This document shows, in pieces, positions 6,783 through 30,295 of a stretch of DNA of 64,000 nucleotides. The number at the start of each line of letters is the position of its first letter. Position 1 is the stretch's first letter. A program made the translations under genes and the position numbers. This DNA comes from an uncultured Gammaproteobacteria bacterium (GTDB lineage: Bacteria; Patescibacteriota; Patescibacteriia; JAHIZJ01). Below the pieces are notes generated by a model that made no database searches, was not told the origin of the DNA, and was given only the letters and a program-made list of their open reading frames with translations. The stretch lies in assembly GCA_964371245.1 (NCBI GenBank), contig CAYJKP010000002.1, positions 257,469 to 321,468 on the forward strand, in the 5' to 3' direction.

Positions 6783-6839
6783 TGGTGCGCAACGTGGAAC
6801 GAAGTCAGAACTTGGATCCGCGATACGACCGAGTACTTT
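6783..6839. repeat. 57-bp imperfect direct repeat, copy 1 (4 mismatches vs copy 2)
   Basis: tggtgcgcaaNgtggNacgaagtcagaacttggatccgNgatacgacNgagtacttt also present at 8483..8539. Confidence 0.85.
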
Positions 6840-8482: not shown

Positions 8483-8539
8483 TGGTGCGCAAAGTGGGAC
8501 GAAGTCAGAACTTGGATCCGTGATACGACGGAGTACTTT
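8483..8539. repeat. 57-bp imperfect direct repeat, copy 2
   Basis: See 6783..6839; lies between the OLD nuclease stop and the XRE regulator start. Confidence 0.85.
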
Positions 8540-8666: not shown

Positions 8667-10529
8667 CTACTGCTCGAGTTTCTTCCCGATGGCCTCCAAC
8701 CAACCAACAACCTCCTTCTTCCCACCCCGTTCATCTATCCGCCCCGGCGTCATCGCGTCAACGGCCTCTGTATTCAGCCGTCGTTTTGCCTGGCACACCT
8801 TCTTACCCCGCACTTTCTCGGTCAGGTCGTTCCATGGGGTCTTATGCGGATCGGTCGCAGCGCTATGAGTGGCTTCCGCCACCAACTCTGGGACGTTGCA
8901 GTCGTCTGTCACAGTTACACAAACCGAGAGCTTTGCCTCTATCGCTTCAGCGTGGAGGTAGTTCTCAAGTTCTCGCTTGTTCGTAATGAATGCGATTGAT
9001 CCATCGCTACGCCCGTTCACGCTGTTTGCCTCGCCTTGGTATTTTGGTGGGTCATCTGATCCTCGATCGAACAAGTGGATTTCCGGTATTCCCAAGTTCC
9101 GCAGATAATGGGCGCGGACCCAATCGCGGAGGTTTTCCCCGCCGAGAGCAATGACCGCGATACGTGGATCATTCTCGATATCCGGCAACATAGGCGTTTC
9201 GGAACGGAGGCAGCGGCTCATGCGGGTAAGATGCTGGACATCGTTTGGTCCCTCTACACAGACAAGGACGCGAACGCGGCTGTCAGGGAGTACACCAAGG
9301 TCATCGGCCACTCGTCGATAGGTTGACTCATCGCCAACTTCGATCATGGTCGTGCCGTCGACCGTACGCGTAACGTGCCGAATGCTGCATACGGGAATGA
9401 GGCCCGCAAGTCCTGGGACGTGGGTCGTGAGGATCACCTGACATCCGTCGGTCGTTGCGAGATCCTGCAGAGCTTCAACAAGCATCTTCTGATTTTCAGG
9501 ATGCTGCGAGGCTTCAGGCTCCTCGATCGCATATATGATGCTCGCTTGTCCCTTCTCAAGTCGTCGGCGTTCTGCTTCGGCACGGAAGAAACTGAGCAGG
9601 ACGAGCCGACGAAGTCCGCTACCACGCTTATTCAGTGGAATACCATCATCGCTGTCGAGTGAAAGTTTGAAAATCGAATCCCACTTCGGTTCGTTCTTGA
9701 ACTTAGGTGTGAGAGCAGAGCCGAGTCTCGGGTCGAGCTCCTGGAGCTTCTTCAAAGTACGATCTGCTACTTTGAGAACGGAATCCTGCACCTTGGTCTT
9801 CACGCGTTCTAGGTCGGACATCATCTCCGCGACGGCCTGCTTGACAGCAACCTGCATGGGATCCTGGGCTTCCGTGTCCTCGTCTGTGCTTGGCCGATCC
9901 GCACGGAAAATCGCAAATGCGGGCAGCTGCTGGGAGAGCTGCTCCCATATTGCTTTGGCATCCTCCTTGTTGAGAGGGATCTCGGTCGGTTGAAGGCGCA
10001 GGTCTTCGATCGACGACCGGATGGCAGTCCGGAGGGCGGAGTTGCATCGAAGATCAACGTTGGATGTGCCCACCTTCAAATCCGAAGCACGCTTCTTCAG
10101 ATCGGTGTTCTTCAGAAGAAGGAGATCACCGGCACCCTGGGCGGTCGGGTGAAGTGCCGCGGCCCAGAACCCCCGGTCAGCCACCTTCCCGTCCTTACAC
10201 TCGAAAACCCTATGGATCTCAAGATCTCCATCCGCATTGAGAAGTAGCTCGGCTGAGAGCGTGGTCGTGGCTGTGGCATCGATCACCACCTTGTCGGGGA
10301 GCTCAGTAAAGATGCAGGCAATCCGAACCTCATGATCCGCCGCGTGGACACACTTGTCGCCAGCGTCAAGCTTCAGATTCGGAGCGCCCAAGAAAATTCC
10401 GATGGCGTCGAGGATGCTCGATTTACCAATGTCGTTCTTGCCCACGAGGGCGGTGAGGTCATCGATGGGTATTAGCGTATTGCCGCGATAACCGCGGAAG
10501 TTCTGTAGCTTTACGGCCTTTAATTTCAT
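8667..10529 (-). CDS. OLD-family ATP-dependent endonuclease (N-terminal ABC-type ATPase + C-terminal Toprim), stand-alone
   Basis: Walker A GKNDIGKSS, Walker B IIYAIEEPEASQHP, H-loop ILTTHVP; Toprim-like VLVCVEGPNDVQH ... AVIALGGEN ... LFDRGSDD. Confidence 0.7.
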   Translation of the reverse strand: MKLKAVKLQNFRGYRGNTLIPIDDLTALVGKNDIGKSSILDAIGIFLGAPNLKLDAGDKCVHAADHEVRIACIFTELPDKVVIDATATTTLSAELLLNADGDLEIHRVFECKDGKVADRGFWAAALHPTAQGAGDLLLLKNTDLKKRASDLKVGTSNVDLRCNSALRTAIRSSIEDLRLQPTEIPLNKEDAKAIWEQLSQQLPAFAIFRADRPSTDEDTEAQDPMQVAVKQAVAEMMSDLERVKTKVQDSVLKVADRTLKKLQELDPRLGSALTPKFKNEPKWDSIFKLSLDSDDGIPLNKRGSGLRRLVLLSFFRAEAERRRLEKGQASIIYAIEEPEASQHPENQKMLVEALQDLATTDGCQVILTTHVPGLAGLIPVCSIRHVTRTVDGTTMIEVGDESTYRRVADDLGVLPDSRVRVLVCVEGPNDVQHLTRMSRCLRSETPMLPDIENDPRIAVIALGGENLRDWVRAHYLRNLGIPEIHLFDRGSDDPPKYQGEANSVNGRSDGSIAFITNKRELENYLHAEAIEAKLSVCVTVTDDCNVPELVAEATHSAATDPHKTPWNDLTEKVRGKKVCQAKRRLNTEAVDAMTPGRIDERGGKKEVVGWLEAIGKKLEQ

Positions 10530-12644: not shown

Positions 12645-15600
12645 CTATTTCTTGTCGCCCTTCAGGCGTTTCATAGCCTTGGCGATCACCTGGGAGACCG
12701 CATCTCGTTTGGCGGTCTTGTCCTGCTCCGTAACCGACTTATACTTCACTTTCACTTTGTAACCGCGAACCGTCCCAGATGTGCTCGCGGCTTCAGCCTC
12801 GATTCCTTCGAGCACCGCGAACGCCTCCTCCGGAGTCGAGAAATGCACGCGCTTCAATTCATCTTCCGAGAGAGTATTCGCCGCGAGCTGTCTGATCTTG
12901 GTCAGCGCCTTCTTCTCGGATGACACGACCACGATTTGCTCGAATCCGGCCGCGAGGCACTTCTGTACATTCCCGAGTTCGTGGTCCGGTGTCGTCGTGA
13001 CCGCGATCTCGCAGGCGACAGATCGGTCGCCCTTCCGCAGGGCCACGTCCACGCTTCCGAGTCCGTCGAGGATCTTCTCCTCGATGGTTGCCCGCCACTC
13101 CCGAGACTCGGCCCAACGCTTCAGGAGTTCCTGCAGATACTTGTGCTGCTGACCACCCCGACCTGGAGTTGGTATAGCTGACGGCGGCAACTGGGGTGGC
13201 TCCGCCCGCTTCGGTCGTTCGGTACTGGTTGGCGTCGGGACCGGCGGGGAAGGTGCGAGGATAGTCGCGCTCTGCGGGACGGGCTCGGCAGGTCGGACCG
13301 GGACCCGGCCGGGAACGGAGCGCTGAAGGATCGCCTCGATCTCTTCCCGCCTCATCGCATACTTCTCGCGCGATTGGGAAATGACCGCATTCCTGCGGCT
13401 GCGAGCCTCTTGAGGATCGACCTCAGCAAGCCTCGGAGTATCGAGGTTGAAGTCGAATTCCGCCCGTTCGACCCTGGCGATGGCCTGGCCGATTCCGAGG
13501 TTCTGGAGGTCCTTGGCTTCATAGGAGGCGAAACCTTCATTGAGGGTACGGGCGTCCTGATCGCCCACCCGGAAACAGATCCTGGTATATGGATTCGACA
13601 GCACGGAGCTCAGAACCTCCGGGCTCTTGCTCCCGATTTGCCGGAGGTCCTGATGCGCCAGGACCAGACCCAGCCGGTACTTGCGCGCACCCGAAAGGAT
13701 CTGCTCCATCGTGGGCGTGACGAAGTTCTGAAATTCGTCGATGTAGACGTAGAATGGCCGGCGTTCAGCTTCAGCCACCTCCTGGCGGCTCATCGCTATC
13801 TGCTGAAGTTTGGAAACGAGGAGACTGCCAAGAAGATGCGCGTTCTCCTCGCCAATCGCACCTTGGGAGAGCCGGGCGAGGAGGATCTTCCCCTCATCCA
13901 TCATCCGGCGGAAGTCGAGCCGGTCATCCTTCTGCGCGACCATATATCGGATGAGTTTGGGTCGGAGAAACGTGTCGAGACGGGTGAGGATCGACGCCTG
14001 AGGATTCCCTTTGAGGAGCTGGAACTCCTTCTGCCAGTAGTACACGACGTCCGGATCACGGACGGTTGCGAGGAATTCGTCACGGAAACTCTTCTCCACG
14101 AGGAACCGGCGAAGATCGACGAGAGTGCCGCCCCGGTCGCTTTCGAGGAAGGCGAGGATCGCGTTCCCCAGAACCGAGGTCATCTGATCGCCCCACGAGG
14201 TGGAGAGCCTGCGGAAGACAGCGGCAAGATCGGAGGAGAGAAGCGTCTTTTCGAGCTCGGAGTGCGCCGAGAGTATGTTGAATCCTACCGAGTATTCGGT
14301 ATCGGCGGGATCGAAGAGGATGACGTCATCGATCCGCTCTTCCGGCACTCTCTCCAGGATCTGGTCGATGAGGTCCCCGTGCGGGTCTAGGACGGCGACA
14401 CCCTGGCCCGTCTTCAGATCCTGGAGGATGAGATTCAGAAGGAGCGTGGACTTGCCGGTGCCCGACGCACCGATGACGTACATGTGTCGGGACCGTTGAT
14501 CGGGAGTGAGTGCAACCTCCACGGTCTTTCCGGCATGAGCGTTTATGCCGAGAAGGAGCCCGGAACCTGTTGCGATCGCCGGCGCAGCCCGCGTCTTCCG
14601 TTGCTCGCGCTTCAGTTTCTCGACGCGGACCGAGGCCGAAGGCGGGTGAACCAAGGAGACGAGCTCCTCCGTGTTCAGAATCATTCCGCTCCGGCGGGAT
14701 CGCCGAAGAATGAAATCCTCCATGTGATCGGTGTTCTCGTACCCGTCGTTCGATAGTGGGATGAGCTCGTTTCCGGCCGGATTCCCGAAGGTCTTGAGGC
14801 TTCCACCGATGGCCCGGGCGAATTCCCAGACCCGTCCCGGATCGGGACTGGTGACTCCGAGCCTGACCACAGAGGCGAAGAGAGGGTGCGCAACCTTCGC
14901 CTTGGCCGCCGCCGCGATCTCGGGTGCATCGAAGAAGAAGGGGTTCCCCTCATCGTCCAGGGCCGAGTTCATGATGCTCTCGGCCCATGCATGCCGGACC
15001 GGCTGGAAGAGGATCTGCAGGACGGCGATCTCGCCCTCCTCGAGATCGGAAAGGGCCGACGTGACTCCGATCAAGGGGTCGATGTCGAAACCCTTGAAGG
15101 TCCGGAGCGGCAGCATGAATTCCCTGGAGAGCCCGAAGTCCACGATGATCGTCTGAGCTCCCTCAAGCTCGGCCCACTGGGACAGTAGGAATTCGGGTTC
15201 GCTGGTGATGACCACTTCGGGGAAGTGGCCTTTGAGCTGCTGGGAGATCTTGGAGGCGTCCTGTTCCCGCACCGCGACCTGGATTGTGATGGAATCCGGG
15301 AGGCCGATGACCTCATAGGAGAGCGGCCCCACGGCGACGGGAAGACTGCGCAGGAACTGCTCGACTGCTTCCCGGGCGACCTTGAACGGGGGTGGAACGG
15401 AGAGCCGCAACTCGGCGATCGGGAACTCATCCTCCAGTGCATCAGGTTCGGGCTCACGCACGTCGGCGATTGGCGCGTCGTCTGTCGGGGAGGTTCGTGG
15501 CTGACCCGTTACCAGGCTCCGAAGTCCGTCGGTGAGATTGCTGAGCAGGGTTGGCCTGCGGCCGTCATCGACCTTGGATCGGATCGGTGGGACCCGGTGC

Positions 15601-15779
15601 ATCCGAAATGGAGCGAACGGCGGTTCCAGCTCGACCGGATATGGAAAGACCTGCCAGCCCCGGCCGCGCTTTTCCCACGTGTAGAACTGTGCGGTAAGGC
15701 GCTCAATCTGAGTCGGGGGACCTCCCAGGACGGAGGTCTCTGCCTTCTCCCAGGGAATCAGATCCCGATCGTCTTCCAT
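12645..15779 (-). CDS. large FtsK/HerA/T4CP-like P-loop ATPase with unknown N-terminal region and possible C-terminal nuclease-like domain
   Basis: Walker A GASGTGKST, VLDPHGDL (DPKGD-like), Walker B YIDEFQNF, ARKYRLGLVLAHQ arginine-finger region typical of TraD/VirD4/HerA; C-terminal RSVACEIAVTTTPDHELGN... may be a PD-(D/E)xK-like fold. Confidence 0.55.
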   Translation of the reverse strand: MEDDRDLIPWEKAETSVLGGPPTQIERLTAQFYTWEKRGRGWQVFPYPVELEPPFAPFRMHRVPPIRSKVDDGRRPTLLSNLTDGLRSLVTGQPRTSPTDDAPIADVREPEPDALEDEFPIAELRLSVPPPFKVAREAVEQFLRSLPVAVGPLSYEVIGLPDSITIQVAVREQDASKISQQLKGHFPEVVITSEPEFLLSQWAELEGAQTIIVDFGLSREFMLPLRTFKGFDIDPLIGVTSALSDLEEGEIAVLQILFQPVRHAWAESIMNSALDDEGNPFFFDAPEIAAAAKAKVAHPLFASVVRLGVTSPDPGRVWEFARAIGGSLKTFGNPAGNELIPLSNDGYENTDHMEDFILRRSRRSGMILNTEELVSLVHPPSASVRVEKLKREQRKTRAAPAIATGSGLLLGINAHAGKTVEVALTPDQRSRHMYVIGASGTGKSTLLLNLILQDLKTGQGVAVLDPHGDLIDQILERVPEERIDDVILFDPADTEYSVGFNILSAHSELEKTLLSSDLAAVFRRLSTSWGDQMTSVLGNAILAFLESDRGGTLVDLRRFLVEKSFRDEFLATVRDPDVVYYWQKEFQLLKGNPQASILTRLDTFLRPKLIRYMVAQKDDRLDFRRMMDEGKILLARLSQGAIGEENAHLLGSLLVSKLQQIAMSRQEVAEAERRPFYVYIDEFQNFVTPTMEQILSGARKYRLGLVLAHQDLRQIGSKSPEVLSSVLSNPYTRICFRVGDQDARTLNEGFASYEAKDLQNLGIGQAIARVERAEFDFNLDTPRLAEVDPQEARSRRNAVISQSREKYAMRREEIEAILQRSVPGRVPVRPAEPVPQSATILAPSPPVPTPTSTERPKRAEPPQLPPSAIPTPGRGGQQHKYLQELLKRWAESREWRATIEEKILDGLGSVDVALRKGDRSVACEIAVTTTPDHELGNVQKCLAAGFEQIVVVSSEKKALTKIRQLAANTLSEDELKRVHFSTPEEAFAVLEGIEAEAASTSGTVRGYKVKVKYKSVTEQDKTAKRDAVSQVIAKAMKRLKGDKK

Positions 15780-15787
15780 GGTTCACC

Positions 15788-16498
15788 CTAGCCACGCAGA
15801 AAATCCCGCATGATTGGCTTCTTCTCTTCGTCCGTCAGAGCCCGCAGCCCCTTCGCCGTTGTGAGGCCATCGATGACCTCGGTCACCGCGGAGTGCATCG
15901 CCGACTGGAACATGAGCATCGTGTCGATGCGATAGTAGGTAAGCGGACGGAAGAACCGCTCATAGAGCGGCCCGAGGAGCGGGACCGCCAGGATTGGATC
16001 ATCGGCATCCATATCGAGTGCCTTGGTAGCGGCTCGATAGACGTACCAAACGACGATGAGGGTCACAAGCGTGATGAGAAGTCGTATCAGGAAGTACGGG
16101 CCACGGATGTGTTGACCGTGCCGGCCGAGTTGCATGAGAATATTCACGATTCCGCTGTGGACCGCGTAGTAGGCGACGAGAGTACCGAGGAGGATCGCCC
16201 AGCAAAGCCATCTTGGCGGGCGCTTCTCTCCCACCCACCACGAAAAAAAGAACCCCGTCCCGAAGGGCGCGGCGCAGAGGTCGAAGGCGAGCTTCTGCCT
16301 GGTGACGCGAAGGTACTCCCGCTTGGCGGAGAGGACCCCGCCCTCGTGCCAGTCCACCCGTGACGTGGAGATCCCGGGGGTCTGACGGCGTTGGAGCGCC
16401 GCCTCGACGGAGGTATAGAAGTCGAGCGCGGACGTCTGGAAGTTGTCGTAGGGCTTTTGCCAATGCGAGAACAGATTGGCCAACAAGGGCTTAGGCAT
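15788..16498 (-). CDS. hypothetical integral membrane protein, translationally coupled to the downstream ATPase
   Basis: 236 aa, about 4 TM helices; stop 8 nt before the ATPase start. Confidence 0.45.
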   Translation of the reverse strand: MPKPLLANLFSHWQKPYDNFQTSALDFYTSVEAALQRRQTPGISTSRVDWHEGGVLSAKREYLRVTRQKLAFDLCAAPFGTGFFFSWWVGEKRPPRWLCWAILLGTLVAYYAVHSGIVNILMQLGRHGQHIRGPYFLIRLLITLVTLIVVWYVYRAATKALDMDADDPILAVPLLGPLYERFFRPLTYYRIDTMLMFQSAMHSAVTEVIDGLTTAKGLRALTDEEKKPIMRDFLRG

Positions 16499-16579
16499 GC
16501 GACCTCCCTTCTCTGATGGATCCTATCGATAGTCGAGGATACGTCTATACGATAAGCAACGCAAGGGGTTGCGTTGCCA

Positions 16580-19500
16580 CTACGACTCCGCCCAGCCCTG
16601 GGAGAGTACTTCCGCCTGCTCAAGGACAGTTTGTGTCGCCTTCTCTTGCTTGTCCGGTGGGTAGCCATATTTGCGCAGGATGCGCTTGACGATCGTTCGC
16701 AGGTGCGCGCGCACATTCTCCCGCTGGGTCCAGTCGATCGTTACGTTGCTCCGAACGGAATCCACCAGTTCGCGGGCAATCGTGCGGAGCGTTTCGTCTC
16801 CAAGCACTTGCACAGCACTATCATTGACGCCGAGCGCATCGTAGAACGCTACTTCGTCCTCGTTGAGTCCGAGCTTCTCCCCGCGCTGGTTCGCCTTGCG
16901 CATCTCCTTGGCAAGACCGATCAGCTCCTCAATGACTTGAGCTGTTTCGATGGCGCGATTTTGGTAGCGTCGGATGGACTGCTCAAGTAGCTCAGCGAAG
17001 GAACGGGCCTGAACAACGTTCTTCAGGCGCCGGCTTCGAATCTCCCCGCTGAGCAGCTTGCGCAGCAGTTCGACGGCGAGGTTCTTCTGCGGCATCCCCC
17101 GGATCTCGGTCAAGAACTCGTCCGAGAGGATTGAGATGTCGGGCTTCTTGAGACCCGCGGCGGCGAAAATGTCCACGACTTCGTCGGAGGCGACCGCCTC
17201 GGAGACGATCTGTCGAATCGCGTGCTCGATCTCCTCGGGGGACTTGCGGTCGCCGGGCACGTTCTTCACCAGCACCGAGCGCACGGCTTGGAAGAATCCC
17301 ACATCGTCGCGGATTCGGATAGACTCCAAGTGCGGAACAGCCAGGGCAAACGCCGCCGACAGTTCGCCTACGGCTTGAACAAGCCGATTCTTGCCGTCCG
17401 GCTGGGTCAGAACGTGCTCCTGTGCGATAGGCAGCAGGCTGAGACGATCCGCCGGCTTGCCGTCCTTCCATTTCGTCCACTCAAAGCCGTGGAAGATACC
17501 GCAGCAGATCTCATACTTCTCAAGCATGACGGAGACGGCCTCACTCTGGTCAATCGTAGTGTCACCCTTGCCGCCACTCTCGGTGTAGTTTGCGAGTGCC
17601 TTGCGGAGCTCATCAGCGAGCCCGAGGTAGTCGACGACCAAACCGCCCGGCTTGTCCTTGAAGACACGGTTGACACGGGCAATCGCCTGCATGAGTCCGT
17701 GGCCCTGCATCGGCTTGTCGATATACATAGTGTGGAGGCAAGGCGCGTCGAATCCGGTCAGCCACATGTCGCGCACGATCACGATCTTGAACGAGTCCGC
17801 CGGATTCTTGAACCGCTCCGCCAGCGTCTCACGTCGGGCTTTGTTACGGATGTGCTCCTGCCAGTCTTCCGGGTCGGCGGCCGCACCGGTCATCACGACC
17901 TTTACCACACCCTTGTCGTCGTCCTCGTTGCGCCAATTGGGCCGCAGAGCGACGATGGCGTCGTAGAGTTCGACGCAGATGCGCCGGCTCATGCACACCA
18001 CCATAGCCTTGCCGTCAATTGCGGACAGGCGTTGCTCGAAGTGACTTATGAGATCCGCAGCGATGATATTGATTCGCTTCTCGGTGCCGACCAATGCCTC
18101 GAGTTGGGCCCACCTCGTCTTCAGCTTCTCCTTGTGTGAAACCTCCTCGCCTTCAGTGGCCTCCTCGAATGCCGCATCAAGCACAGCATGTTGGCTGTTC
18201 CTCAATTCGAGCTTGGCGAGACGGCTTTCGTAGTAGATCGGCACAGTCGCACCGTCTTGGACCGCACGCTGGATGTCATAGACGGAGATGTAGTCGCCGA
18301 ACACTGCCCGTGTGTTCTTGTCCGTCAGCTCGATCGGCGTGCCGGTGAATCCTATGAATGAGGCGTTAGGCAGGGCGTCGCGCATGTGCCGCGCGAACCC
18401 GTCGATAAAGTCGTACTGGCTCCGGTGTGCTTCGTCGGCGATAACAACGACATTTCGCCGGTCTGAGAGCAGCGGGTGCATGTCCCCGCGTTCTTCGGGG
18501 AAGAATTTCTGAATCGTAGTAAAAATCACACCCCCAGCGTCGCGGTGCAGTAGCTGTCGCAGCTGAGAGCGGCTTTCGGCCTGATCGGGAGGCTGACGTA
18601 AAAGGTCTCTGCAGCGGGAGAAGGTTCCGAAGAGTTGCCCGTCCAAGTCATTCCGATCAGTGAGGACCACGATGGTTGGATTACGCATTTCCGGCTGAAG
18701 CACAACCCTGCCCGCATAGAAAGCCATGGTCAGGCTCTTGCCGGACCCTTGAGTGTGCCAGACGACGCCGATCCGACGATCACCGGGTTTCGCCTGGTTC
18801 GATTCTTGGTCGCGGCGCTCGTCTCGACCGTCGCCGATCCGGTCGGAACTCTCAGCTATAGCCGCGCGGAGGGTCTCCTCCACTGCTACGTTGACCGCAT
18901 GGTACTGGTGGTAACCAGCCATCTTCTTTAGCAGCAGCCCGCCGCCCATGTCCTCGAACACGAGAAAGTACCTGATGAGATCGAGAAATCGACGCTTCTC
19001 GAAAATGCCTTCGATGACCACCTGGGCCTCCGGTAGACGCCGATCGGCAAGCTCCCCTCCGGTGATCGTGCGCCAGGGCATGAACCACTCGCGTTCAGCC
19101 GTAAGAGTCCCCACTCGGGCCTGGACGCCATCCGAGATGATGAGTGCTTCGTTGAAGGCAAATAGAGACGGGATTTCCCGCTTATATGTTTGAAACTGAC
19201 GAAAGGCAGACCAGATTGTTGCCATCTCATCTGCCGGATTCTTGAGTTCGATCGCAGCAAGCGGGAGGCCGTTGACGAACACGACGACATCGGGTCGCCG
19301 GTTGTTCCGGTTCTCCATCACAGTGAACTGATTAACAACGAGCCAATCGTTGTTGTTGGGATTCATGTAGTCAAGAAGCTGCGCTTGCGCACCTGCGATC
19401 GTCCCATCTGGACGGCGGTACTCGACTGTGACGCCGTCGACAAGCATCAAGTGTGCGGCATGGTTAGTTGTGACCAGCAGAGGCGACGTTATCCGAGTTA

Positions 19501-19720
19501 CCTTCCGAAATGCTTCATCGACCGCGTCGCCCGGGAGATCGGGGTTCAGTCGCGTCAGCGCGGAGCGAAGGCGATCCTCAAGGATGACCTGGCTGTAATC
19601 GGACCTTTCAGAGCTCGGTTCCCCCGGGGCCATGTCTGGACCGAATCGCGTGCCGTAGCCAAGCCCATCAAACCAGATCAGCACGGCGTCCTCTACTTCA
19701 GATTCGATGAATTTCGTCAT
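16580..19720 (-). CDS. hsdR: type I restriction enzyme R subunit HsdR
   Basis: HsdR N-terminal domain ([22 protein letters not shown]), SF2 helicase motifs ([15 protein letters not shown]), C-terminal T1RH-like region. Confidence 0.9.
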
Positions 19721-21671
19721 ACTATGCGCTTTATCTCATAAATCTCTTGGTTGTCAGGACCCTCGTCCAGAGCAAGACCTGTGGCCGCTGCTTCGCGTTT
19801 GATCAACCATCTGAGGGAGTAGTTCCGTACTCTTTCATACAGACCTTTGACCGTCGACCCAACTACGAGATTGGCCAGAGAAACAAGAACAAGAACACCA
19901 GAACCACAGGTGAGTACCCATCCGACTAAGACATTACTTGAACGAAGACCGAGACCCACGGCAAAGCCAGCTATCAGCAGCATTCCAATAAAGCCAGACA
20001 CTAACCTTGCGCAGTTCCTCGCTCTTCTCCAACACCGCCAATAGAGCCGCTCTTGCACCTGCTTATTTCCTGCAAGTGCAGATACCAGGGCCTCCCGGGT
20101 TCTCTTATGCTCGGTCTCCTCCGCGGTGAGCTTTTCAGTCTCCTCTCTTTTCATCTCGGTTGACACCCTGCGAAGTGTCTCAGCGACTGTTTCCTCAGTC
20201 AAGGCGTCTTCGTCTCCGAGCGTCAGGCGCATGAGCTCTTCTTGTGCAAGCGCGCTACTCCGCAGTAGTTGATGGTCGCGCGCCGTTATCTTCCCTAGTT
20301 TCTGCAGCCTGTTGATCTCGGCCAGGTACTTGCAGAGGAGCTCCTTTGATGGTTGCAGTGCCGCATACGAAAACGCCAGGATTTCAGTAGTTGGAAGAGT
20401 CGGAGCACCCATTGGCGCTTTGAGCCATGCCATGTTTGCCAAGCTGAAGTCGGTGATTACGCTCGACACCTCACGCGATTCCTCATGCCTCTGCCCGTAT
20501 TCCCACGCCGCCCGAGCAAAACCAGAATTGCTGGTCACAAACACCGCTCGGCATTTTTCGACCGTGGCCGGCGCCGTGTGCGCTCTCAGTGCGTAGATAC
20601 TACGCACTGAGTTGATATCATAGTCTTTGGCTCGCGGATTGAAATACGACACTTCGTCGTCGAGGACCTTCTCAAATATTCTTTCGTCGATCTGGAAATC
20701 AGGTATGTACTGCGGTGTGTCCTTCACGTCGATTTGCGCTTCTGCAAGCTTCTCATCTACCTGCCCCGCCATCAGAAGGAGGTCCGACCTAGTGGTGCCG
20801 TTTCGCCGTGCTTCCGTGACAATGGCCCCGCGGCCGGCCTCTCCATCCACGTGGTCCGCGGCACCTTTCAGCACGCGTACAAGTTCATCTCGCGAGTGTG
20901 CGAACGCAGCCACCGTAGCCCCGAGGTTACCAAGCAACGAGACCAGGTCTGCAACCGAAGCCCTTCGCGGTTCGCCTTCGAGGCCAAGTCGGCGAACCAG
21001 TAGCGGGGTATCAAGGTAGAATGTCACGCCGCTATATGACATTGGCGCGTTCTGCAGGTCTGGGCATAGTAAGCCGTTGGCGAGCATGTTCCCTTGCACC
21101 ATGATCATGAAGCTCTCAAAACGCTCTGGGTCGCGGTCCTGGATGTGTAAGACATACTGGCTGACTAAGATGATATCGCTCTCTCTCTTGACCTCCACGG
21201 TAGGAATCGCTGACCCTTGTAGATACGCGCGGAGACATACGATGCTGGACTGACCCAGGAACGTGCATATGGCAGTCACAGCGTCATCGATAATGGTGAC
21301 CTCTCTAGGCGTGCTTCTCGAGAACTCCATCAGACCGGACACCACTGCTTTGATATGGCGATCGGCTTGGCTCTTCTTTGCAAGGATACCGGGATCAGGC
21401 AAGATACCTGCAATGTGATAGACTCCCGCTTCCTTTCGTAATGGGTACGCCCGGGAGAGACGTCTAAGCACTACTTGTATGGCGCGTTCTGGAATTGCCA
21501 GCCCATACTGCGTACGGATGTGATCTCTAACACCCCGGTCCGTTATCGGGTCGGGCTTGTGGTCGACAAGGACCTGTAGAATAAACGGGCGAAGATAGTC
21601 AAGATAGTCCCTACCGTGGTCAACGTTGACTTTCAGCATCGCCAAACTGGTAAGGGTTGCGGTTGTGGACA

Positions 21672-21672
<1 letters not shown>
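19717..21672 (-). CDS. unknown 651-aa protein embedded in the type I R-M operon, C-terminal double TM anchor
   Basis: Overlaps the hsdS stop by 1 nt and the hsdR start by 4 nt; no P-loop; two C-terminal TM helices; occupies the PrrC/RloC position. Confidence 0.5.
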
Positions 21673-22956
<1,284 letters not shown>

Positions 22957-22973
<17 letters not shown>

Positions 22974-24507
22974 GTTTCTTTAGATTGGCAGCGATTGCGG
23001 CATCGAGGGTTGCTGTGTCTTTCTGCTGCTCTCGCAATGCCGTGGTGAGCCGTTTTATCTTTTCGTTGAACGGTTCTCCATCGTCCAACAGCTCTTCAGC
23101 GCCGACGTAGCGACCAGGTGTGAGCACGTGACCGCGCTTCCGGATCTCTTCCAGGTTCGCGCTTTTGCAGAACCCCAGGAGGTCTCCGTACTTCTTCTTT
23201 ACATCCTTGTCTCCGCGCCAAGCATGATAGGTGTCCGCGACCCTTGCGATGTCTTCGGACGTGAGCTCTCGATGCACGCGGTCGATCATCGTTCCAACCT
23301 CTCGAGCATCGATGAAGAGCACCTCGCCCCGTCGGTTACGGAAGCGACCGTTTTCTCTGTTCCGCGTCAGGAACCAAAGGCACACTGGGATTTGCGTGGA
23401 ATAGAAGAGCTGCCCAGGAAGGGCGATCATGCAATCGACGAGATCGGCCTCGATAATCGCTTTGCGGATCTCACCCTCCCCTGACTGGTTCGATGACATG
23501 GAGCCATTGGCGAGCACAAAGCCGGCGAGTCCAGTGGGCGCAAGATGGTAAATGAAATGCTGGACCCAGGCGAAGTTCGCGTTGCCAGGAGGCGGGATGC
23601 CGTACTTCCAGCGCTTGTCGTCTTTGAGGAGATCCCCGCGCCAGTCGCTGTCATTGAAAGGAGGGTTGGCAAGGACGTAGTCGACCTTAAGGTCCGGGTG
23701 CCGGTCGTTATGGAAGCTGTCGCCCTGAGTGATGTTCCCTTCGATCCCGCGAATCGCGAGGTTCATCTTGCAGAGCCGCCATGTAGTGTAGTTCGACTCC
23801 TGGCCAAAAACGCTGATTTGCCCGATGCGGCCACCATGTTCCTCCATAAATCGCTCGGATTGGATGAACATGCCGCCGGAGCCGCAGCAGGGGTCGTAGA
23901 CGCGGCCCTTGTAGGGTGCGAGCATGGCGACGAGGAGCTGAACGACGCACCGCGGCGTATAGAATTGACCACCCTTTTTCCCCTCGGCGCTTGCGAAACG
24001 AGAAAGGAAGTATTCATAGACTCGACCGAGTATGTCCTTCGAGCGGTTCTCTTTGTCACCGAGTCCGAGGTTCGTGATGAGGTCGATGAGTTGGCCAAGT
24101 CGTTGCTTGTCGAGCCCGGGTCGCGCATAGTCCTTCGGGAGCACACCCTTTAGACTTGGGTTGTCTCGCTCGATCGCGGTCATCGCGTCGTCAACAATCT
24201 TGCCGATTGCCGGCTGTTTTGCGGTGTCCTTGAGCTTGGACCATCGCGCTTCCTCCGGAACCCAAAAGACATTCGCCGCACGATACTCATCCGGATCCTC
24301 GGGATCAGCCCCCTGGCGACGTTCCTGGTCAAGCTGAAGACGACGCTCCTCGAAAGCGTCGGAGATGTATTTGAGGAAGATGAGACCGAGGACGACGTGT
24401 TTGTACTCCGCTGCGTCCATGTTGTTGCGGAGGGCATCAGCCGTAGCCCAGAGTTCAGCCTCGAAGCCGATATTGCCTCCGTTGTTTTTTGCTTTCGTTC
24501 GAGCCAT
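22957..24507 (-). CDS. hsdM: type I R-M DNA methyltransferase subunit HsdM (N6-adenine)
   Basis: HsdM_N motif ([36 protein letters not shown]), catalytic NPPF (VLANPPFN); start set at ATG 24507, excluding a spurious 120-aa N-terminal extension. Confidence 0.85.
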
Positions 24508-24713
24508 GGATTCACTCCGTATTCTGGGTGCGTCCTTTGTTAGTAGCACGGAAATTGGGAGGGCCTCCGCACCCTCCGGCATATTAGTTAATGTATTGCA
24601 GCCCAACGTATTAGCGCCCTTTACAGTACAAGATTCCGGGCCATTCGTCAAGCTAAACTCCTGCTGTAAGTTACGAAGCCGGAGACTGCACATGGGGCAG
24701 TCTCCGGCTGAGA

Positions 24714-25442
24714 TCAGAGCGCGAGCGCGCTCCGAAAGGTGCTGGAGAGCCTGAGCCCAGAGTCCATTTGGATCCTGGGGCTTCTGGATTTCTGGACCTC
24801 GGTGAAGGCATTGAAGAGCGACCAGGCAGTTCGAGGAATGAACTCTCCGTGAGTCGGTTTCTCCCATGCTTCGATCACCTTCGGCAGGTTCGAGGCCGGG
24901 AGGACGTTCCTCCGAACGGCTTCGACCATGAGATGGTCGGCCATCTCTGGCGAGAGACCCCGTTCCTTCATTGCCGCGATCTCTCCGTGGATCCGGCTCT
25001 GCATCGACGAGACCTTCGAGAGCATCCGGTAGATCAGGTCGGGGAGATCCCGGAACACGTTGATCGTGTGCTTCCGCGCCGCGCCGACTTCGCCCGAGAA
25101 GGCAAGGTTGTCACAGCAGAAGACTCGGCTTCCCGCGACCAGACTCACCGAGAGGGACCGGTCGTAGGAGTTGCGAAGCCCGATGGCGAGCGCGTAGTCG
25201 GGATGACCCCCACCGTTCGTACAGGTTAGGACCCCGAACATCTGGAGCCCTTCGTGCGCGAGGCCGAACCGCTGCTCTGTGATCGTGAGCCCGAAGCGCG
25301 GAATGTGCAGCTCGACCTCCTCGACGAACCGGGCATAGGGTACCGGCACGTACGAATCGGTCTCCTCGGGAACCGCGACGGCTGCGAGATCGACTTTGGT
25401 CGCCTCCCAGCCGCCACGATGCAGGACAAGCTGACCGGACAT
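24714..25442 (-). CDS. hypothetical protein (mobile-element associated; possibly DUF932-like)
   Basis: 242 aa, no clear motif; located between the recombination module and the R-M operon. Confidence 0.3.
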
Positions 25443-25463
25443 GTGACGAGATCTCCTTTCTCC

Positions 25464-25892
25464 TCAGAGGAGCAGACCTTTCTCTCGGAAGGACAGGAAC
25501 GAACCGTTCCCGCCCACGATGACGTGATCGAGGACGTCGATCCCGACGAGCCGTCCCGTGTCCACGAGCCGATTCGTGATCTCGACGTCGTCGTCCGAGG
25601 GACTTACGTCTTCGGACGGGTGGTTGTGCGCGAGGATCATCGCGGCGGCGGAGGCCACGATGGCCGGCCGGAAGACCTCGCGAGGATGAACGATCGAGGC
25701 CGAGAGGCTTCCCACCGAGACTGTCTCGATGCCGAGCACCGTGTGGCGGCTCGTGAGGAGCACGACGATGAAGTGTTCGCGCTTTGCGTCCTTGAGCGAG
25801 CGCGCGAGGAGCTTCGCAACATCCTCGGGGCGCGTGACGGCCGGTGGTTTCTTCCCCCGGTAGTGACGGGTCCGCAGTTCGGCGACGTACAT
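25464..25892 (-). CDS. radC: RadC-like JAB/MPN domain protein
   Basis: AHNHPSEDVSPSDDDVEITNRL matches the JAMM HNHPSG motif; start trimmed to MYVAELR preceded by RBS AGGAGGA. Confidence 0.7.
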   Translation of the reverse strand: MYVAELRTRHYRGKKPPAVTRPEDVAKLLARSLKDAKREHFIVVLLTSRHTVLGIETVSVGSLSASIVHPREVFRPAIVASAAAMILAHNHPSEDVSPSDDDVEITNRLVDTGRLVGIDVLDHVIVGGNGSFLSFREKGLLL

Positions 25893-25997
25893 AGGGTGAA
25901 TCCTCCTGGTTGTCGAGCGAGAAGAAGCGGGCCTCCAGGGAATTCCCCAAAGGCCCGGTGGTGGTTGCACGAAGCGCAGAGAACGGCGGATAGGCAG

Positions 25998-26759
25998 TCA
26001 TTCCCCGCGCCACGATTGGCAATGGGCAAAGAACTCGCACTCCGAACACTTCCAGGAGGGGTTCGGGAAGAAGGAGCTACCACGGATCGCGAGGGCGACG
26101 CTCTCAATCAAGCGCGCGGTCCAGGCGAGATCCTCGACCGTGCGAGAAGCGGGAAGGCGTTCCAGTCGCGGGACCTTGGTCTTGAGGAGGGCGTCGATGC
26201 GGAGGGGTGGGATCTGGCCCGTCGCAAGGAAGCGGACAAGCGCATACGTTGAGAGCTGGAGATGCCGTTCGAGGCTCCCGGTGTCGAAGGTCCGAGCGGC
26301 GGTCTTGAGTTCCACGAGCGTGCCGTCCGTCTCGATGAGGTCAATGACGCCGCGCAGGCGCACGTCGAGCACTTCACCCGTCTCGGGATCGACGAGGTCG
26401 ATCTCGAATCGGTCCTCGATGAGCTGCGGCAGCGTCCCGTCGACCTGCTCGGCATAGAGGCGGACGAGATCCCGCCCCTTCTCCCCGAGGATCTCTTTCG
26501 ATTCCTTCGCGGGGAAGACCACGGGCTCGAGGTTCTGGGCGAACCAGTCCGCGTCGAAGACCTTGACCACCGCCTCCGGGTCGGGCGTGCGCCCGGCGAA
26601 CCGTTCCTTCTGGAACCACTCGATGGCGGCGTGAACCGACGATCCGAACGCGAGCGCGGCGGCTCGCCACGGCGGCGGGATCCGGTCGATGTACTGGAAG
26701 CGGTACTTCAGGGGGCAGAAGAGATACGACTGGACCCGGCTAACGCTGAGCGGCTCCAT
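25998..26759 (-). CDS. PD-(D/E)XK exonuclease, Cas4/RecB-like with C-terminal 4Fe-4S cysteine cluster
   Basis: D...ELK core (DLIETDGTLVELKT); N-terminal C (YLFCPLKY) plus C-terminal WKCSECEFFAHC Cys cluster, as in the Cas4/AddB nuclease family. Confidence 0.65.
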   Translation of the reverse strand: MEPLSVSRVQSYLFCPLKYRFQYIDRIPPPWRAAALAFGSSVHAAIEWFQKERFAGRTPDPEAVVKVFDADWFAQNLEPVVFPAKESKEILGEKGRDLVRLYAEQVDGTLPQLIEDRFEIDLVDPETGEVLDVRLRGVIDLIETDGTLVELKTAARTFDTGSLERHLQLSTYALVRFLATGQIPPLRIDALLKTKVPRLERLPASRTVEDLAWTARLIESVALAIRGSSFFPNPSWKCSECEFFAHCQSWRGE

Positions 26760-27417
26760 CGGGAACCTCCTTCAGGAGCCGGTCGATCGCATGAGTCGCC
26801 TGGAGCTTCGTCACCTCCTTGAGCGAGACGACGCAGAGATAGTTCTTCAGGTAGTCGTGCGCCGCTTCCCCTTGGAGCCCTTGGCCGGCGAGGATGCGGA
26901 AGAGGTAGCGGCGCTGCGCCTCGGTCATCAGGACGCCGTTGCCGTTCCCGCCAGCCTGGGGGGCTTGCGGCATCGGACGGGTCTCACTTGGAACCGGGTA
27001 CTCTTGGACGGACGGTGCACCCGATCCGAGGTCGTGACCATTCGCGGCGAGACCATCGCTGTCCAACTCCTCGAAGGAGACGATACCGATGTTCACGGCA
27101 TCACGGAGAGCGCGGGCCTTCGCCCGGGTCTCGGCCATGCGGATCAGGTGTGGGACGATGAAGGAGTTCACGTTGTCGGGACAGGCGTCGCCGATCCCTT
27201 CGAACCGCCCCTTCGTCGTCTCGACGAGCGCTTTCGCGATCGCCATGCGGCCATTCTCGTCGGAGGGGATCTGGAGAAGTTTCGTCGCGACCCGCTGCAA
27301 GCCCTCGTCATGGGCTTTCGAGAGCAGCCCCGGGTACGTGACGACTTCCTTGGTCCCGACCACGCGGCCGGTGCGGTCTTTGATCTCGATCGTGCGGATG
27401 AGCTCAACTGGTTTCAC
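26740..27417 (-). CDS. phage single-strand annealing protein (RecT/Red-beta-like), GTG start
   Basis: Partner of the adjacent exonuclease; MAETRAKARALRDA helix reminiscent of RecT family; GTG start chosen because of the AAGGAGG RBS. Confidence 0.4.
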   Translation of the reverse strand: MKPVELIRTIEIKDRTGRVVGTKEVVTYPGLLSKAHDEGLQRVATKLLQIPSDENGRMAIAKALVETTKGRFEGIGDACPDNVNSFIVPHLIRMAETRAKARALRDAVNIGIVSFEELDSDGLAANGHDLGSGAPSVQEYPVPSETRPMPQAPQAGGNGNGVLMTEAQRRYLFRILAGQGLQGEAAHDYLKNYLCVVSLKEVTKLQATHAIDRLLKEVPDGAAQR

Positions 27418-27534
27418 TTCTGAACCTCCTTTGTGAAGGAACTGGTGGGAAATGAGAGAGGAGCGAGAGGGTGTTCCCATCCTTCACGATACGGAGGTCC
27501 GGAGGTTGGCCGTAGAGAGGGAGAGGTTGCGGAG

Positions 27535-28062
27535 TCAGCTCTCCTTGGGGATGGCGATCTGCCGTACGGCGAGGGCAACCGCGAGCGCGTCAAACATGTG
27601 AAGCCAATACTTGTCCTTCGGTTTGAATCCGAGCACCGGATGCGGCGGATCCTTCGGGAGCTTCACCCGGAGATCCTCAAACCCCATCTGGACGATCGCC
27701 CGAGCGACGTCGAGCTTTCTTGCGTGTGCATTGCCGACGACGATTCGGCGGACTTCGCGGGGCGAGAGCTCATAGACACGCATCCCGAGATCCCGCGAGC
27801 GGGCATGAAGCTCCTGCGCGATGACGGAGACAAGGGCAGCGCGTTTGGTCGGGAAGAGCAGCGGCTTCTCGATTCCGACGATCGCGGGCGCATACTCCTC
27901 GATGTACGAGAGCACGACCCGGCGGGCCTGATCGATCAGGTCGCGCGGACGGTCGCCGTTCTTGAGGGTGTGAACCCCGAGCGCGAGCAGGTCACGGCCG
28001 CGAAGAACGACCGCGCCCATCTCTCTCGTTCCAGGGTCAATACCAAGGATGACTGGGTGCAT
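27535..28062 (-). CDS. RuvC-like Holliday junction resolvase (phage type), paralog 1
   Basis: ILGIDPG (catalytic Asp), VGIEKP (Glu), HMFDALAVALA C-terminal acidic motif. Confidence 0.65.
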   Translation of the reverse strand: MHPVILGIDPGTREMGAVVLRGRDLLALGVHTLKNGDRPRDLIDQARRVVLSYIEEYAPAIVGIEKPLLFPTKRAALVSVIAQELHARSRDLGMRVYELSPREVRRIVVGNAHARKLDVARAIVQMGFEDLRVKLPKDPPHPVLGFKPKDKYWLHMFDALAVALAVRQIAIPKES

Positions 28063-28230
28063 AGGTGTTGATTCGTAATGAGGTCAAGGTAGAGCCCTCC
28101 CGAAAGGAACCGTCCGGCCTCGCGCGTCTTGCTGGCGGATGAGGCGGACGGCGGCAGTCCGCAAGAGATGCTGCCTTCCGAAGGAACGGGATCAGCCGAA
28201 GAATCGGCTGCGGGAGGGCTGGTTTGTAAC

Positions 28231-28728
28231 TCAGACGCTCTTCGCCTGGTGATGGAGAGCGAGCGCGATCGCGTCGAACATGTTCTGGAAATACAGCTCC
28301 TTCCACTTGCGGTCTTGGGTGAGGTAGACGCGGAGCGCCGGAAACCGGTGGCCAACTGCGATCGCCGTCTCCTTCTTCGTGGCCCAGCCGTTTCCGACGA
28401 GAGCCTTGCGGACGGTCTGCGGCGCATAGGTGGTCACGGGCAGCTTCTCCCTCCGGCCGAGTCGACGGACGGATCCAGCGAGCTTGTCGAGCGCGTTGAG
28501 CCAGGTCACGGGATGACCATGTGTGGCTTCGAGAACGAGGATCCCCGGCCGGTACGCCGTGATCCAGGTGGCGACAAGCTTTCGGGCTTCGCGGAGTCGG
28601 CGCTCCTTCGGGAGCAGGCGCAGAGGACGGACGCCGCTCGCGATGAGCCGAGAGCCTTTGAGGACCGCGAAGCCGAGATCGCGGAGGCCGGGGTCAAGGG
28701 CGAGGATTGTTTGGTGCTTCATGGGCAT
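28231..28728 (-). CDS. RuvC-like Holliday junction resolvase, paralog 2
   Basis: ILALDPG, LVLEAT, NMFDAIALALHH; same architecture as 27535..28062. Confidence 0.6.
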   Translation of the reverse strand: MPMKHQTILALDPGLRDLGFAVLKGSRLIASGVRPLRLLPKERRLREARKLVATWITAYRPGILVLEATHGHPVTWLNALDKLAGSVRRLGRREKLPVTTYAPQTVRKALVGNGWATKKETAIAVGHRFPALRVYLTQDRKWKELYFQNMFDAIALALHHQAKSV

Positions 28729-29245
28729 GGCGTTTTAGTAAGTAAAGGAAGAGGGCAGTGCGTGAACGCCGGATCTCCTGTTGCGGAACCGCGAGCGTTC
28801 CGGCAAGCGCGCGGCGTAAGGTCTCGTCAGGGTAGCTGGCGATCGCTTCTTCCAGCGCGTCAGTGTCCCGCTTCTCCCCGAGCGAGCGGGCGAGCTTCTC
28901 CGTCGTGAAGGCGCGCGGTGGTCCGGCCGGAACCTCCAACGCATCGGGCGCATGGGAAGACCGTTTCATGCGGACCTGGATGGTTCCGTTCGTCCGCCGG
29001 GCCTCGATATATCGGTGCTTTCTGAGATGGCCGAGCCAGCTTCGGATCGTCCCTTCCGGCAGCCCCATCGTCCGGGCGAGCTCGGAGGATTCGACCGCCA
29101 GAGTGTCGCTGCCCGGGGACAGGCGCGAGAGAAGAACGAGGTATAGCCAGACGGCGGCGCGCATCCGATGGATGTGGAGCGCCTGCGGGTGTTCGAGGAT
29201 CCCTCGGTCGAGGTGAATGATGTTGGGAGTTGGATTGCGGGTCAT
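28694..29245 (-). CDS. winged-helix DNA-binding protein (regulator/replication-initiator-like), paralog 1
   Basis: wHTH-like N-terminal half; shares a C-terminal motif (IRRSRTALFLYLLKRHAHE) with the adjacent paralog. Confidence 0.4.
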   Translation of the reverse strand: MTRNPTPNIIHLDRGILEHPQALHIHRMRAAVWLYLVLLSRLSPGSDTLAVESSELARTMGLPEGTIRSWLGHLRKHRYIEARRTNGTIQVRMKRSSHAPDALEVPAGPPRAFTTEKLARSLGEKRDTDALEEAIASYPDETLRRALAGTLAVPQQEIRRSRTALFLYLLKRHAHEAPNNPRP

Positions 29246-29862: not shown

Positions 29863-30137
29863 CCGTCTCGGGGATTAGCATCTCGATCATCGCGCGGTCG
29901 GAAATAGAGGTTGCCGTAGAGCGACTCGGTGAGCGTGCCGAGGCCCCGTGCCAGACGGAAGACGTTCGGAAGGTTCGGCAATCGCCGGCCCCGCTCCCAA
30001 GATGAAATGATGCAGCGGCCCTTGCCGACAAGCTGCCCGAGTCCTTTCTGGGTGAGACCGGCCTTCAGCCGATACTCGCGTATTCGATTGGGGAATTTGG
30101 CGCGGGAATGGGTCCGGCGCAGAGTGTATTCGACCAT
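29859..30137 (-). CDS. XRE-family HTH transcriptional regulator (cI-like repressor candidate)
   Basis: Start trimmed to MVEYT; REYRLKAGLTQKGLGQLVGKGRCIISSWERGRRLP HTH; paralogous to 8046..8333; divergent from the integrase operon. Confidence 0.65.
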   Translation of the reverse strand: MVEYTLRRTHSRAKFPNRIREYRLKAGLTQKGLGQLVGKGRCIISSWERGRRLPNLPNVFRLARGLGTLTESLYGNLYFRPRDDRDANPRDG

Positions 30138-30295
30138 GTACTCAAGATACCGACCCGAACGAAAACCGAACAGAGGGGGAAAGGTGCATAACCCATCACA
30201 TCCTGTGGATACCGGAGAAAACGCCCATAAAACGCGCTGGATTTGGCACCTCTCCCCTCCTACGGAAACGGATCCAGGTATGGGATTGTAAGAAC

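Follow-up and report, generated by a model that had tools for sequence, protein, structure and literature searches.

Integrative mobilizable elements and mobilizable plasmids that encode a VirD4 protein of their own also carry a MobC relaxase (PMC5704250). The MOB_C relaxases have a PD-(D/E)XK fold and accompany self-encoded coupling proteins (PMC12857230; PMC5704250), and TraI of pIP501 has been proposed as the membrane partner of TraJ, a coupling protein that lacks transmembrane (TM) helices (PMC12857230). Here we describe a locus in a 64,000-nt stretch of contig CAYJKP010000002.1 (GenBank assembly GCA_964371245.1; ‘the window’ below) that encodes a membrane protein, an ATPase with a C-terminal nuclease-like domain and a large serine recombinase. 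With a probability of roughly one half, we read these three genes as one operon that forms the backbone of chromosome-integrating elements and provides them with a DNA-processing and transfer module of their own, the restriction-modification (R-M) and defense genes nearby being interchangeable cargo. In our view the decisive evidence is the comparative context provided by 80 related loci.

The three genes lie on the minus strand in the order membrane protein, ATPase, recombinase (Table 1). The membrane-protein gene is preceded by a strong Shine–Dalgarno sequence, AAGGGAGG, and ends 8 nt ahead of the ATPase gene (TAG-GGTGAACC-ATG), a spacing given in an earlier note on this DNA and borne out by the junction sequence. 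The ATPase and recombinase genes are separated by 10 nt (TAG-GTGTAGTCCG-ATG). Upstream, an 81-nt spacer divides the membrane-protein gene from hsdR of a type I R-M operon. This spacer contains a perfect 9-bp hairpin that begins 3 nt past the hsdR stop codon and probably separates the R-M operon from the three-gene module. The hairpin has a weak T tract and was not called a terminator by a consensus scan, and a scan for promoter and terminator consensus sequences on the minus strand of the module gave no informative sites. The short junctions, the hairpin after hsdR and the strong Shine–Dalgarno sequence suggest that the three genes form one transcription unit, separate from the type I R-M operon. 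The recombinase contains Resolvase and Recombinase domains, a zinc ribbon and a coiled coil, plus two C-terminal HTH_3 domains (Pfam). With more than 3,900 full-length relatives of the ATPase and a family of 942 proteins that includes the membrane protein, both genes are far beyond chance open reading frames (ORFs).

The comparative set consists of 80 loci with 10-kb flanks, drawn from a scan of one genome per species. The loci span about ten phyla and derive from Eisenbacteria, Acidobacteriota, Verrucomicrobiota, Bacteroidota, Planctomycetota and Gemmatimonadota, with further examples from Binatia, Desulfarculus, Kerfeldbacteria, Saccharimonadales, Sumerlaeota, Gammaproteobacteria and others; two of them are copies on a single contig. 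Culturable carriers are Lacibacter luteus TTM-7 (NZ_SDHW01000006), Mucilaginibacter sp. OK098 (NZ_FRCM01000007) and Brevifollis gellanilyticus NBRC 108608 (NZ_BKAG01000030). De novo clustering of 1,431 neighboring ORFs yields only three widely shared families: the ATPase (78 sequences, from 77 loci and the window), the membrane protein (62) and the large serine recombinase (35). In a profile hidden Markov model (HMM) search, the membrane gene immediately precedes the ATPase gene in 61 of the 67 loci that have enough upstream DNA, and the gap between the two is −4 to +26 nt in 51 of these 61. Of 74 loci, 36 encode a serine recombinase downstream and in the same orientation, 25 of them within 350 nt. 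Nine of the 74 have a tyrosine integrase downstream, seven of them without a serine recombinase. Identity to the window proteins co-varies among the three families, with r = 0.85 for ATPase versus recombinase (n = 35) and r = 0.77 for ATPase versus membrane protein.

The defense genes of the window behave differently. Tblastn searches anywhere in the 80 loci find no homolog of HsdR, of the 651-aa ORF that lies between hsdS and hsdR, or of the AAA_15-family ATPase encoded beside the recombinase; HsdS is found in one locus and HsdM in five. Since the integrase and the membrane gene are constant and the defense genes variable, the membrane protein–ATPase pair behaves as element backbone and the defense genes as cargo. 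A functional tie between the pair and the type I R-M system or the AAA_15 gene, which has similarity to OLD, was considered and rejected on these counts, and the earlier suggestion of a defense or exclusion module tied to the R-M island is not what the 80 loci show. Integrase linkage at an island edge, variable cargo and a known target nearby, the characteristics of an integrative mobile element, are all present.

One such target is comM, which encodes a Mg-chelatase-like competence helicase. The recombinase gene often abuts a truncated comM: the gene lies beside the recombinase in six loci, and a C-terminal comM fragment is found in three others. The N- and C-terminal fragments share a break point at about position 155 of 207 in the Pfam Mg_chelatase profile. 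The gene is a recurrent integration target of these elements, and insertion would inactivate a natural-transformation gene. In two further loci the ATPase gene abuts a tRNA-Arg gene. Pfam searches of 291 sampled neighbors identify integrases, DnaG-like primases, ArdC, RadC, Replic_Relax, DNA methylases and comM fragments. In Verrucomicrobiota, either a 600-aa membrane protein with a PEGA domain or an 800-aa multi-TM protein with a WD40-like β-propeller (PD40) is regularly encoded just upstream of the pair (two clusters, six loci each). They may belong to the same system as envelope components particular to this lineage, or they may be cargo.

The ATPase is composed of an N-terminal domain, a P-loop motor, a linker and a C-terminal nuclease-like domain. 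In the motor, Walker A is GASGTGKST (residues 437–445) and Walker B is YIDEF (residues 679–683), and an all-α insertion lies between the two. The four motifs quoted in the earlier note are all present and, like the Walker motifs, are invariant or nearly so in an alignment of 20 homologs. Pfam matches the motor to TrwB_AAD_bind (2e-9, residues 422–745), and T4SS-DNA_transf, DUF87 and TraG-D_C also exceed their gathering scores; over residues 422–745 the first two families score 37.2 bits (cut-off 20.5) and 29.7 bits (cut-off 20.1). When the family profile is compared with the Protein Data Bank (PDB), TrwB is the best match (2.9e-6), followed by DotL (4e-4), HerA (0.03) and DptH (0.08). Both searches agree with the earlier description of a coupling-protein- or HerA-type ATPase with a separate membrane partner. 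The curated NCBIfam models for coupling proteins remain under their cut-offs (conju_CD1115, 57.8 versus 250 bits; SXT_TraD, 50.5 versus 366; TraD_Ftype, 14.9 versus 521), as does the VirB4_CagE model TIGR00929, which scores 25.7 bits against a cut-off of 643 and covers residues 670–751 only. Pfam CagE_TrbE_VirB gives no match to the protein. We assign the ATPase to the coupling-protein class, yet outside every named curated family. In databases it is named as a ‘type IV secretion system DNA-binding domain-containing protein’ or as hypothetical.

The N-terminal domain has a VirB4-type fold ahead of the motor. An AlphaFold model of residues 1–406 shows a soluble α/β domain with no TM anchor in the same polypeptide, and residues 63–106 within it form a disordered stretch.

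The C-terminal domain has the αβββαβ core of the PD-(D/E)XK superfamily, as identified by fold search, which supports the restriction-endonuclease-like fold proposed earlier; a sequence-profile comparison of this domain with the PDB gives nothing significant. Invariant residues are distributed over the core: GRGG..H.Y.Q in helix 1, E900 in strand 1, D911 in strand 2, E924 in strand 3, and E934, N937 and K940 in helix 2. There is no lysine two residues past E924, and the invariant K940 is positioned on the following helix together with E934 and N937. Migration of active-site residues occurs within the PD-(D/E)XK superfamily. A profile of the domain retrieves 2,587 representatives (clusters at 50% identity) among 1.84 billion proteins, and in the best 150 of these the domain is always at the extreme C-terminus. 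Short matches to the profile look like gene fragments broken at contig ends. Among 72,556 plasmids, tblastn with the domain as query returns a single short archaeal match. Five homologs of the ATPase bear a fused HTH_17 domain (excisionase/AlpA/MerR-type), and these fusions fit site-specific handling of element DNA. In one of the five, HTH_17 takes the place of the extreme C-terminus behind the nuclease core.

The membrane partner consists of a conserved soluble N-terminus (residues ∼1–90), a poorly conserved two-TM hairpin (∼98–156) and a conserved soluble C-terminus (∼170–236), with 26 invariant positions in the family alignment. A Kyte–Doolittle scan identifies two strong hydrophobic helices (∼98–122 and ∼133–156), in place of the four TM segments counted in the earlier note; residues ∼72–90 include at most one further, weakly hydrophobic stretch, which is part of a conserved motif of the soluble domain. 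A two-helix topology places both soluble domains on one side of the membrane, presumably the cytoplasmic side, on which the ATPase is located. The protein has no family match in Pfam, NCBIfam or PADLOC, and a Pfam search of 46 homologs at E ≤ 1 finds nothing, VirB3, TcpE and PrgI included.

Some of the related loci contain a second ATPase of the same type. About 19 of the 74 encode an extra paralog of 390–530 aa that comprises the ATPase domain only, is 33–37% identical to the long ATPase and has no TM helix; the window contains no such gene. The paralog adjoins Replic_Relax in eight loci. In Verrucomicrobiota it is followed by Replic_Relax, primase, ArdC and RadC, and in several Bacteroidota and Planctomycetota loci it is directly upstream of the membrane gene. 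Eight loci share an upstream run of short ATPase, Replic_Relax, DnaG-like primase and a 95-aa protein, and ArdC and RadC are encoded close by. An H...PD...ExD...K..Y pattern is invariant in the Replic_Relax alignment and suggests that Replic_Relax is itself a PD-(D/E)XK-type nuclease.

Links to conjugation are found among distant relatives of the ATPase, which are 23–37% identical and annotated as DUF87 or type IV secretion system (T4SS) proteins. The most distant of those detected are predicted coupling proteins of Gram-positive conjugation loci. DUF87 relatives on pLS20-sized (Bacillus subtilis) and 27-kb Bacillus plasmids are encoded near TcpD/TcpE-family transfer genes or have a replication-relaxation gene immediately downstream. 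Gene 48 of pLS20 is a predicted coupling-protein gene (PMC5313138), with which we do not equate the DUF87 match. The relative on an Embleya plasmid is part of a Gram-positive-type T4SS locus that encodes a PrgI-family protein, an ATP-binding protein, a T4SS DNA-transfer-family protein, a replication-relaxation protein and NlpC/P60; the gene for the relative is directly followed by that for the replication-relaxation protein. Full-length homologs were found neither on PLSDB plasmids nor in phages. A phage origin was considered and rejected, as Bacillus phages give only weak matches to the ATPase domain and none of full length.

These observations suggest how the module might work. The recombinase would excise and integrate the element. 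The two-helix protein would tether the ATPase to the inner membrane via the VirB4-like N-terminal domain, much as VirB3 holds VirB4 and as TraI would hold TraJ. The TrwB-like ATPase ring would then bind the element DNA and pump it, and the PD-(D/E)XK domain would make the nick or cut that starts transfer, as MOB_C relaxases of the same fold do beside the coupling proteins of plasmids. The DNA might leave the cell through the conjugation pore of a helper, as in the model for integrative mobilizable elements. Alternatively, in relatives that have the short coupling-protein paralog and a replication-relaxation protein, it might use a very reduced apparatus of the element's own. We infer the tethering, pumping, nicking and role in transfer from the folds, motifs, operon structure and conserved neighborhoods described above.

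Several observations weigh against an element backbone with its own transfer module. About a third of the loci have no integrase within 10 kb downstream. Among the 291 sampled neighbors, VirB6, VirB8, VirB9, VirB10 or their Gram-positive equivalents do not recur within 10 kb, and there is no canonical relaxase; this leaves no explanation for how DNA would exit the cell, above all in diderm hosts. The invariant lysine is off the canonical (D/E)xK position, on the next helix, and catalysis by the predicted nuclease is only plausible. The C-terminal domain and Replic_Relax both display an H...D...E...K-on-helix pattern, yet an hhalign comparison of the C-terminal profile with the Replic_Relax alignment gives a probability of 0.9%, that is, no detectable homology. 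In size the membrane protein exceeds VirB3 more than twofold, and its large conserved soluble domains lack an assigned fold. In Verrucomicrobiota, the pair formed by the short coupling protein and Replic_Relax apparently makes the long ATPase-nuclease not obviously needed as coupling protein and relaxase. Finally, HerA- and DptH-like ATPases do have roles in defense systems (DptH of Dnd; Mad8), which bears on the first of the alternatives.

In that alternative, which we consider unlikely although it is still a live rival, the pair is a fixed part of the element that serves in defense or exclusion. The ATPase, tethered to the membrane, would load onto incoming phage, plasmid or transforming DNA and the nuclease would destroy it, shielding host and element from competitors, or the element from curing by transformation. 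A translocase and nuclease at the membrane are well suited to catching incoming DNA, no export pore is encoded, and the frequent disruption of comM is consistent with conflict over such DNA. The window island is moreover rich in defense genes (the type I R-M system and the OLD/AriA-like ATPase). Across loci, the pair is nevertheless unlinked to any one defense gene, and its place in an operon with the integrase at the edge of the element marks it as backbone and not as cargo. The profile evidence is similarly divided. The only defense-database match of the ATPase is to the PADLOC mad8 profile (5e-21), accompanied by weak matches to HerA profiles (HerA, 4e-6) that cover only the Walker A region (residues 405–471) and by the DptH match in the PDB noted above; Mad8 and DptH are HerA-like defense ATPases. 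According to its authors, the mad8 profile was built from HHpred matches to PDB proteins, and Mad8 is described as HerA-like. This PDB-derived profile is generic, and no curated defense family matches (NCBIfam HerA_antiphage, 14.5 bits versus a cut-off of 800). The N-terminal domain is VirB4-like and not a HerA HAS-barrel, the nearest annotated relatives are conjugation proteins, and the HTH_17 fusions and the co-occurrence of the paralog with Replic_Relax point to processing of the element's own DNA.

Membership in the MADS defense system was considered specifically and rejected, given the generic mad8 profile and the lack of partner genes: no kinase, DptG or DUF4276 gene is found beside the ATPase gene, and no NCBIfam MADS model matches the ATPase. 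Matches to mad1 and mad3 in the window fall on generic HTH and AAA_15 domains. The two observations that, according to the earlier note, would refute its defense reading are also lacking, which keeps that reading alive as a rival: close homologs do not occur within full T4SS loci, nor is the C-terminal domain a simple DNA-binding fold. Among the window genes scanned there is neither a T4SS gene nor a relaxase, as the earlier note had stated.

A stronger form of the transfer reading holds that the membrane protein and the ATPase-nuclease alone are a complete and hitherto unrecognized minimal DNA-transfer machine, with a VirB3/VirB4-like motor that cuts its own substrate and moves islands whose only other mobility gene is an integrase. 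We regard this as doubtful. Such a machine would be the counterpart, in diderms and in bacteria of the candidate phyla radiation (CPR), of Streptomyces TraB-type transfer.

It is also improbable, in our estimation, that the pair is a recombination helper, an FtsK-like motor and nuclease that set the direction or timing of excision and integration, or that replicate, resolve or segregate the excised circle. FtsK activates XerCD, and helicase operons adjoin the ccr recombinase genes in staphylococcal cassette chromosome (SCC) elements. The 10-nt gap to the recombinase gene, the recombinase gene that directly follows in about half of the loci and the co-variation of the two proteins agree with such a role, as do the members with a fused excisionase-type HTH_17 and the element primases, which suggest a replicative excised form. 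However, the pair is also found with tyrosine integrases or with no integrase within 10 kb, and none of the serine integrases studied is known to need an ATPase. A role confined to the cytoplasm, in recombination or replication, would also leave obligatory membrane anchoring and the VirB4-like N-terminal domain hard to account for. It is highly improbable that the pair is a functionless VirB3/VirB4-like or coupling-protein fragment left by decayed integrative conjugative elements, despite the lack of other T4SS genes nearby, as thousands of full-length copies across about ten phyla retain invariant Walker, nuclease and N-terminal motifs, gene order and translational coupling are kept, and the three-domain architecture is under strong purifying selection.

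The island in the window runs roughly between tRNA-Val (6.0 kb) and tRNA-Leu/rplS (32.2 kb). Beside the genes already discussed it encodes RadC, DUF932, PDDEXK_1, two RuvC-like proteins and a second serine recombinase. The 651-aa ORF has a hydrophobic C-terminus with likely TM helices, has no match in Pfam, NCBIfam or PADLOC and is not conserved beside members of the ATPase family. Its product may be an accessory to the type I R-M system or a partner that acts in the manner of abortive infection. The gene for the OLD-like ATPase comes immediately after the serine recombinase gene and has a promoter-like site of its own (10564–10537); no obvious candidate for an AriB or GajB partner is encoded beside it.

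The region from ∼24700 to 30500 has a G+C content of 0.62–0.64, compared with ∼0.52 in its flanks. Its genes encode the DUF932, RadC, PDDEXK_1 nuclease and two RuvC-like proteins, several uncharacterized proteins and an HTH protein, a set typical of mobile elements, and the window island may be a composite of two elements. The second recombinase gene is at the far end of the island, where its final ∼90 nt coincide with a predicted tRNA-Leu(GAG) gene that is encoded on the other strand and adjoins rplS. This overlap may represent an integration junction, or the tRNA prediction may be false. A search for attachment sites by direct and inverted repeats between 5.5 and 34 kb yields chance-level short matches and one 57-nt direct repeat (6783–6839 and 8483–8539; 93% identical, 1,700 nt apart). 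The two copies of this repeat fall within paralogous small ORFs of 168 and 141 aa, which are located between the OLD-like gene and the tRNA-Val/tRNA-Ala genes. Serine integrases leave only ∼2-bp repeats, so that a repeat search is uninformative and does not fix the element boundaries in the window.

Table 1. Coordinates of the three-gene module and of other features in the window (nt; position 1 is the first nucleotide of the window)
Feature	Position	Strand	Basis or remark
Membrane partner protein, 236 aa	15788..16498	minus	ORF call; family of 942 proteins
ATPase, 1044 aa	12645-15779	minus	ORF call
ATPase residues 1-400, N-terminal domain	14580..15779	minus	Pfam DUF8128; VirB4-N-terminal-domain-like fold
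ATPase residues ~410-800, coupling-protein-type (TrwB/TraD/VirD4-like) P-loop ATPase	13380..14552	minus	Pfam; PDB profile search
ATPase residues ~801-867, Pro-rich linker	13179..13379	minus	Variable length, low conservation; alignment columns 840-940
ATPase residues 868-1044 and stop codon, C-terminal PD-(D/E)XK (restriction-endonuclease-like) domain	12645..13178	minus	
Large serine recombinase, 649 aa	10685..12634	minus	ORF and Pfam; third conserved gene of the module
Perfect 9-bp hairpin, GCAACGCAA-CCCC-TTGCGTTGC	16556..16577	minus	Read from sequence
HsdR	16580-19720		Type I R-M operon
651-aa ORF between hsdS and hsdR	19717-21672	minus	Overlaps both neighbors by a few bases
HsdS	21672-22973		Type I R-M operon
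HsdM	22957-24867		Type I R-M operon
620-aa OLD/AriA/GajA-like ATPase	8667-10529	minus	Pfam AAA_15, 4e-73; PADLOC AriA, 1.6e-58
Second large serine recombinase, 520 aa	30625-32187	plus	Far end of island
Predicted tRNA-Leu(GAG)	32098-32183	minus	Directly beside rplS

If the backbone reading is correct, the three genes mark a large, unannotated class of genomic islands. R-M genes and further cargo would travel with these islands among soil and freshwater phyla, for which little is known about the paths of gene exchange. Were the minimal machine to exist, it would transfer islands in phyla with few known cases of classical conjugation genes (Acidobacteriota, Verrucomicrobiota, Planctomycetota, Gemmatimonadota and CPR). 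Current detection of integrative conjugative and mobilizable elements relies on profiles of canonical relaxases, VirB4 and coupling proteins, and the curated NCBIfam models score this ATPase far below their cut-offs. A conjugation-type motor fused to a domain of restriction-endonuclease fold would be a new way to couple DNA cutting with pumping. The locus also offers a caution for the mining of defense islands, in that a translocase-nuclease beside an R-M operon can be a vehicle and not a weapon.

A literature search returned nothing that describes DUF8128 or the trio of membrane protein, ATPase and recombinase. The parts, namely a coupling-protein ATPase, a VirB4-like N-terminus, a PD-(D/E)XK nuclease and a serine integrase, are known; their combination and setting are undescribed. 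The type IV coupling proteins TrwB, TraD and VirD4 share the P-loop ATPase with its all-α insertion, TrwB being the best match in the PDB, and the two-helix membrane protein encoded alongside recalls the arrangement proposed for TraI and TraJ of pIP501. Unlike these coupling proteins, the window ATPase has an additional 400-aa VirB4-like N-terminus and a C-terminal nuclease-like domain, and its gene is in an operon with that of a serine integrase, with no T4SS or canonical relaxase gene nearby; linkage to T4SS or relaxase genes is confined to distant plasmid relatives. In comparison with VirB3–VirB4 (TrwM–TrwK of R388), the sequence of the ATPase domain resembles coupling proteins more than VirB4, which has no nuclease domain, and the module has no VirB6 or VirB8 partners. 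VirB3 has ∼100 residues, whereas the membrane partner has 236 and two conserved soluble domains, and it matches no VirB3, TcpE or PrgI profile.

The CloDF13 MobB/MobC system and some streptococcal integrative mobilizable elements show the same pairing of a self-encoded coupling ATPase with an enzyme of PD-(D/E)XK fold, and have no mating pore of their own. In the window module the two functions would be fused in one polypeptide beside an integrase, and the likeness to MOB_C is one of fold and pairing. The HerA, DptH and Mad8 ATPases belong to the same FtsK–HerA P-loop class, with weak to moderate profile matches, and the logic of an ATPase joined to a nuclease is common to both. The window protein has no HAS-barrel, however, and DptF/G, Mad1–7, NurA and Sir2 are absent; an integrase and a membrane protein are conserved instead. 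A parallel in concept is Streptomyces TraB, where an integrase-bearing element has a single membrane-associated transfer motor of the FtsK/HerA class. TraB is FtsK-like, has its own TM segment and a winged-helix DNA-recognition domain, lacks a nuclease and transfers double-stranded DNA in mycelial monoderms, whereas the family described here is found mostly in diderm phyla and in CPR bacteria.

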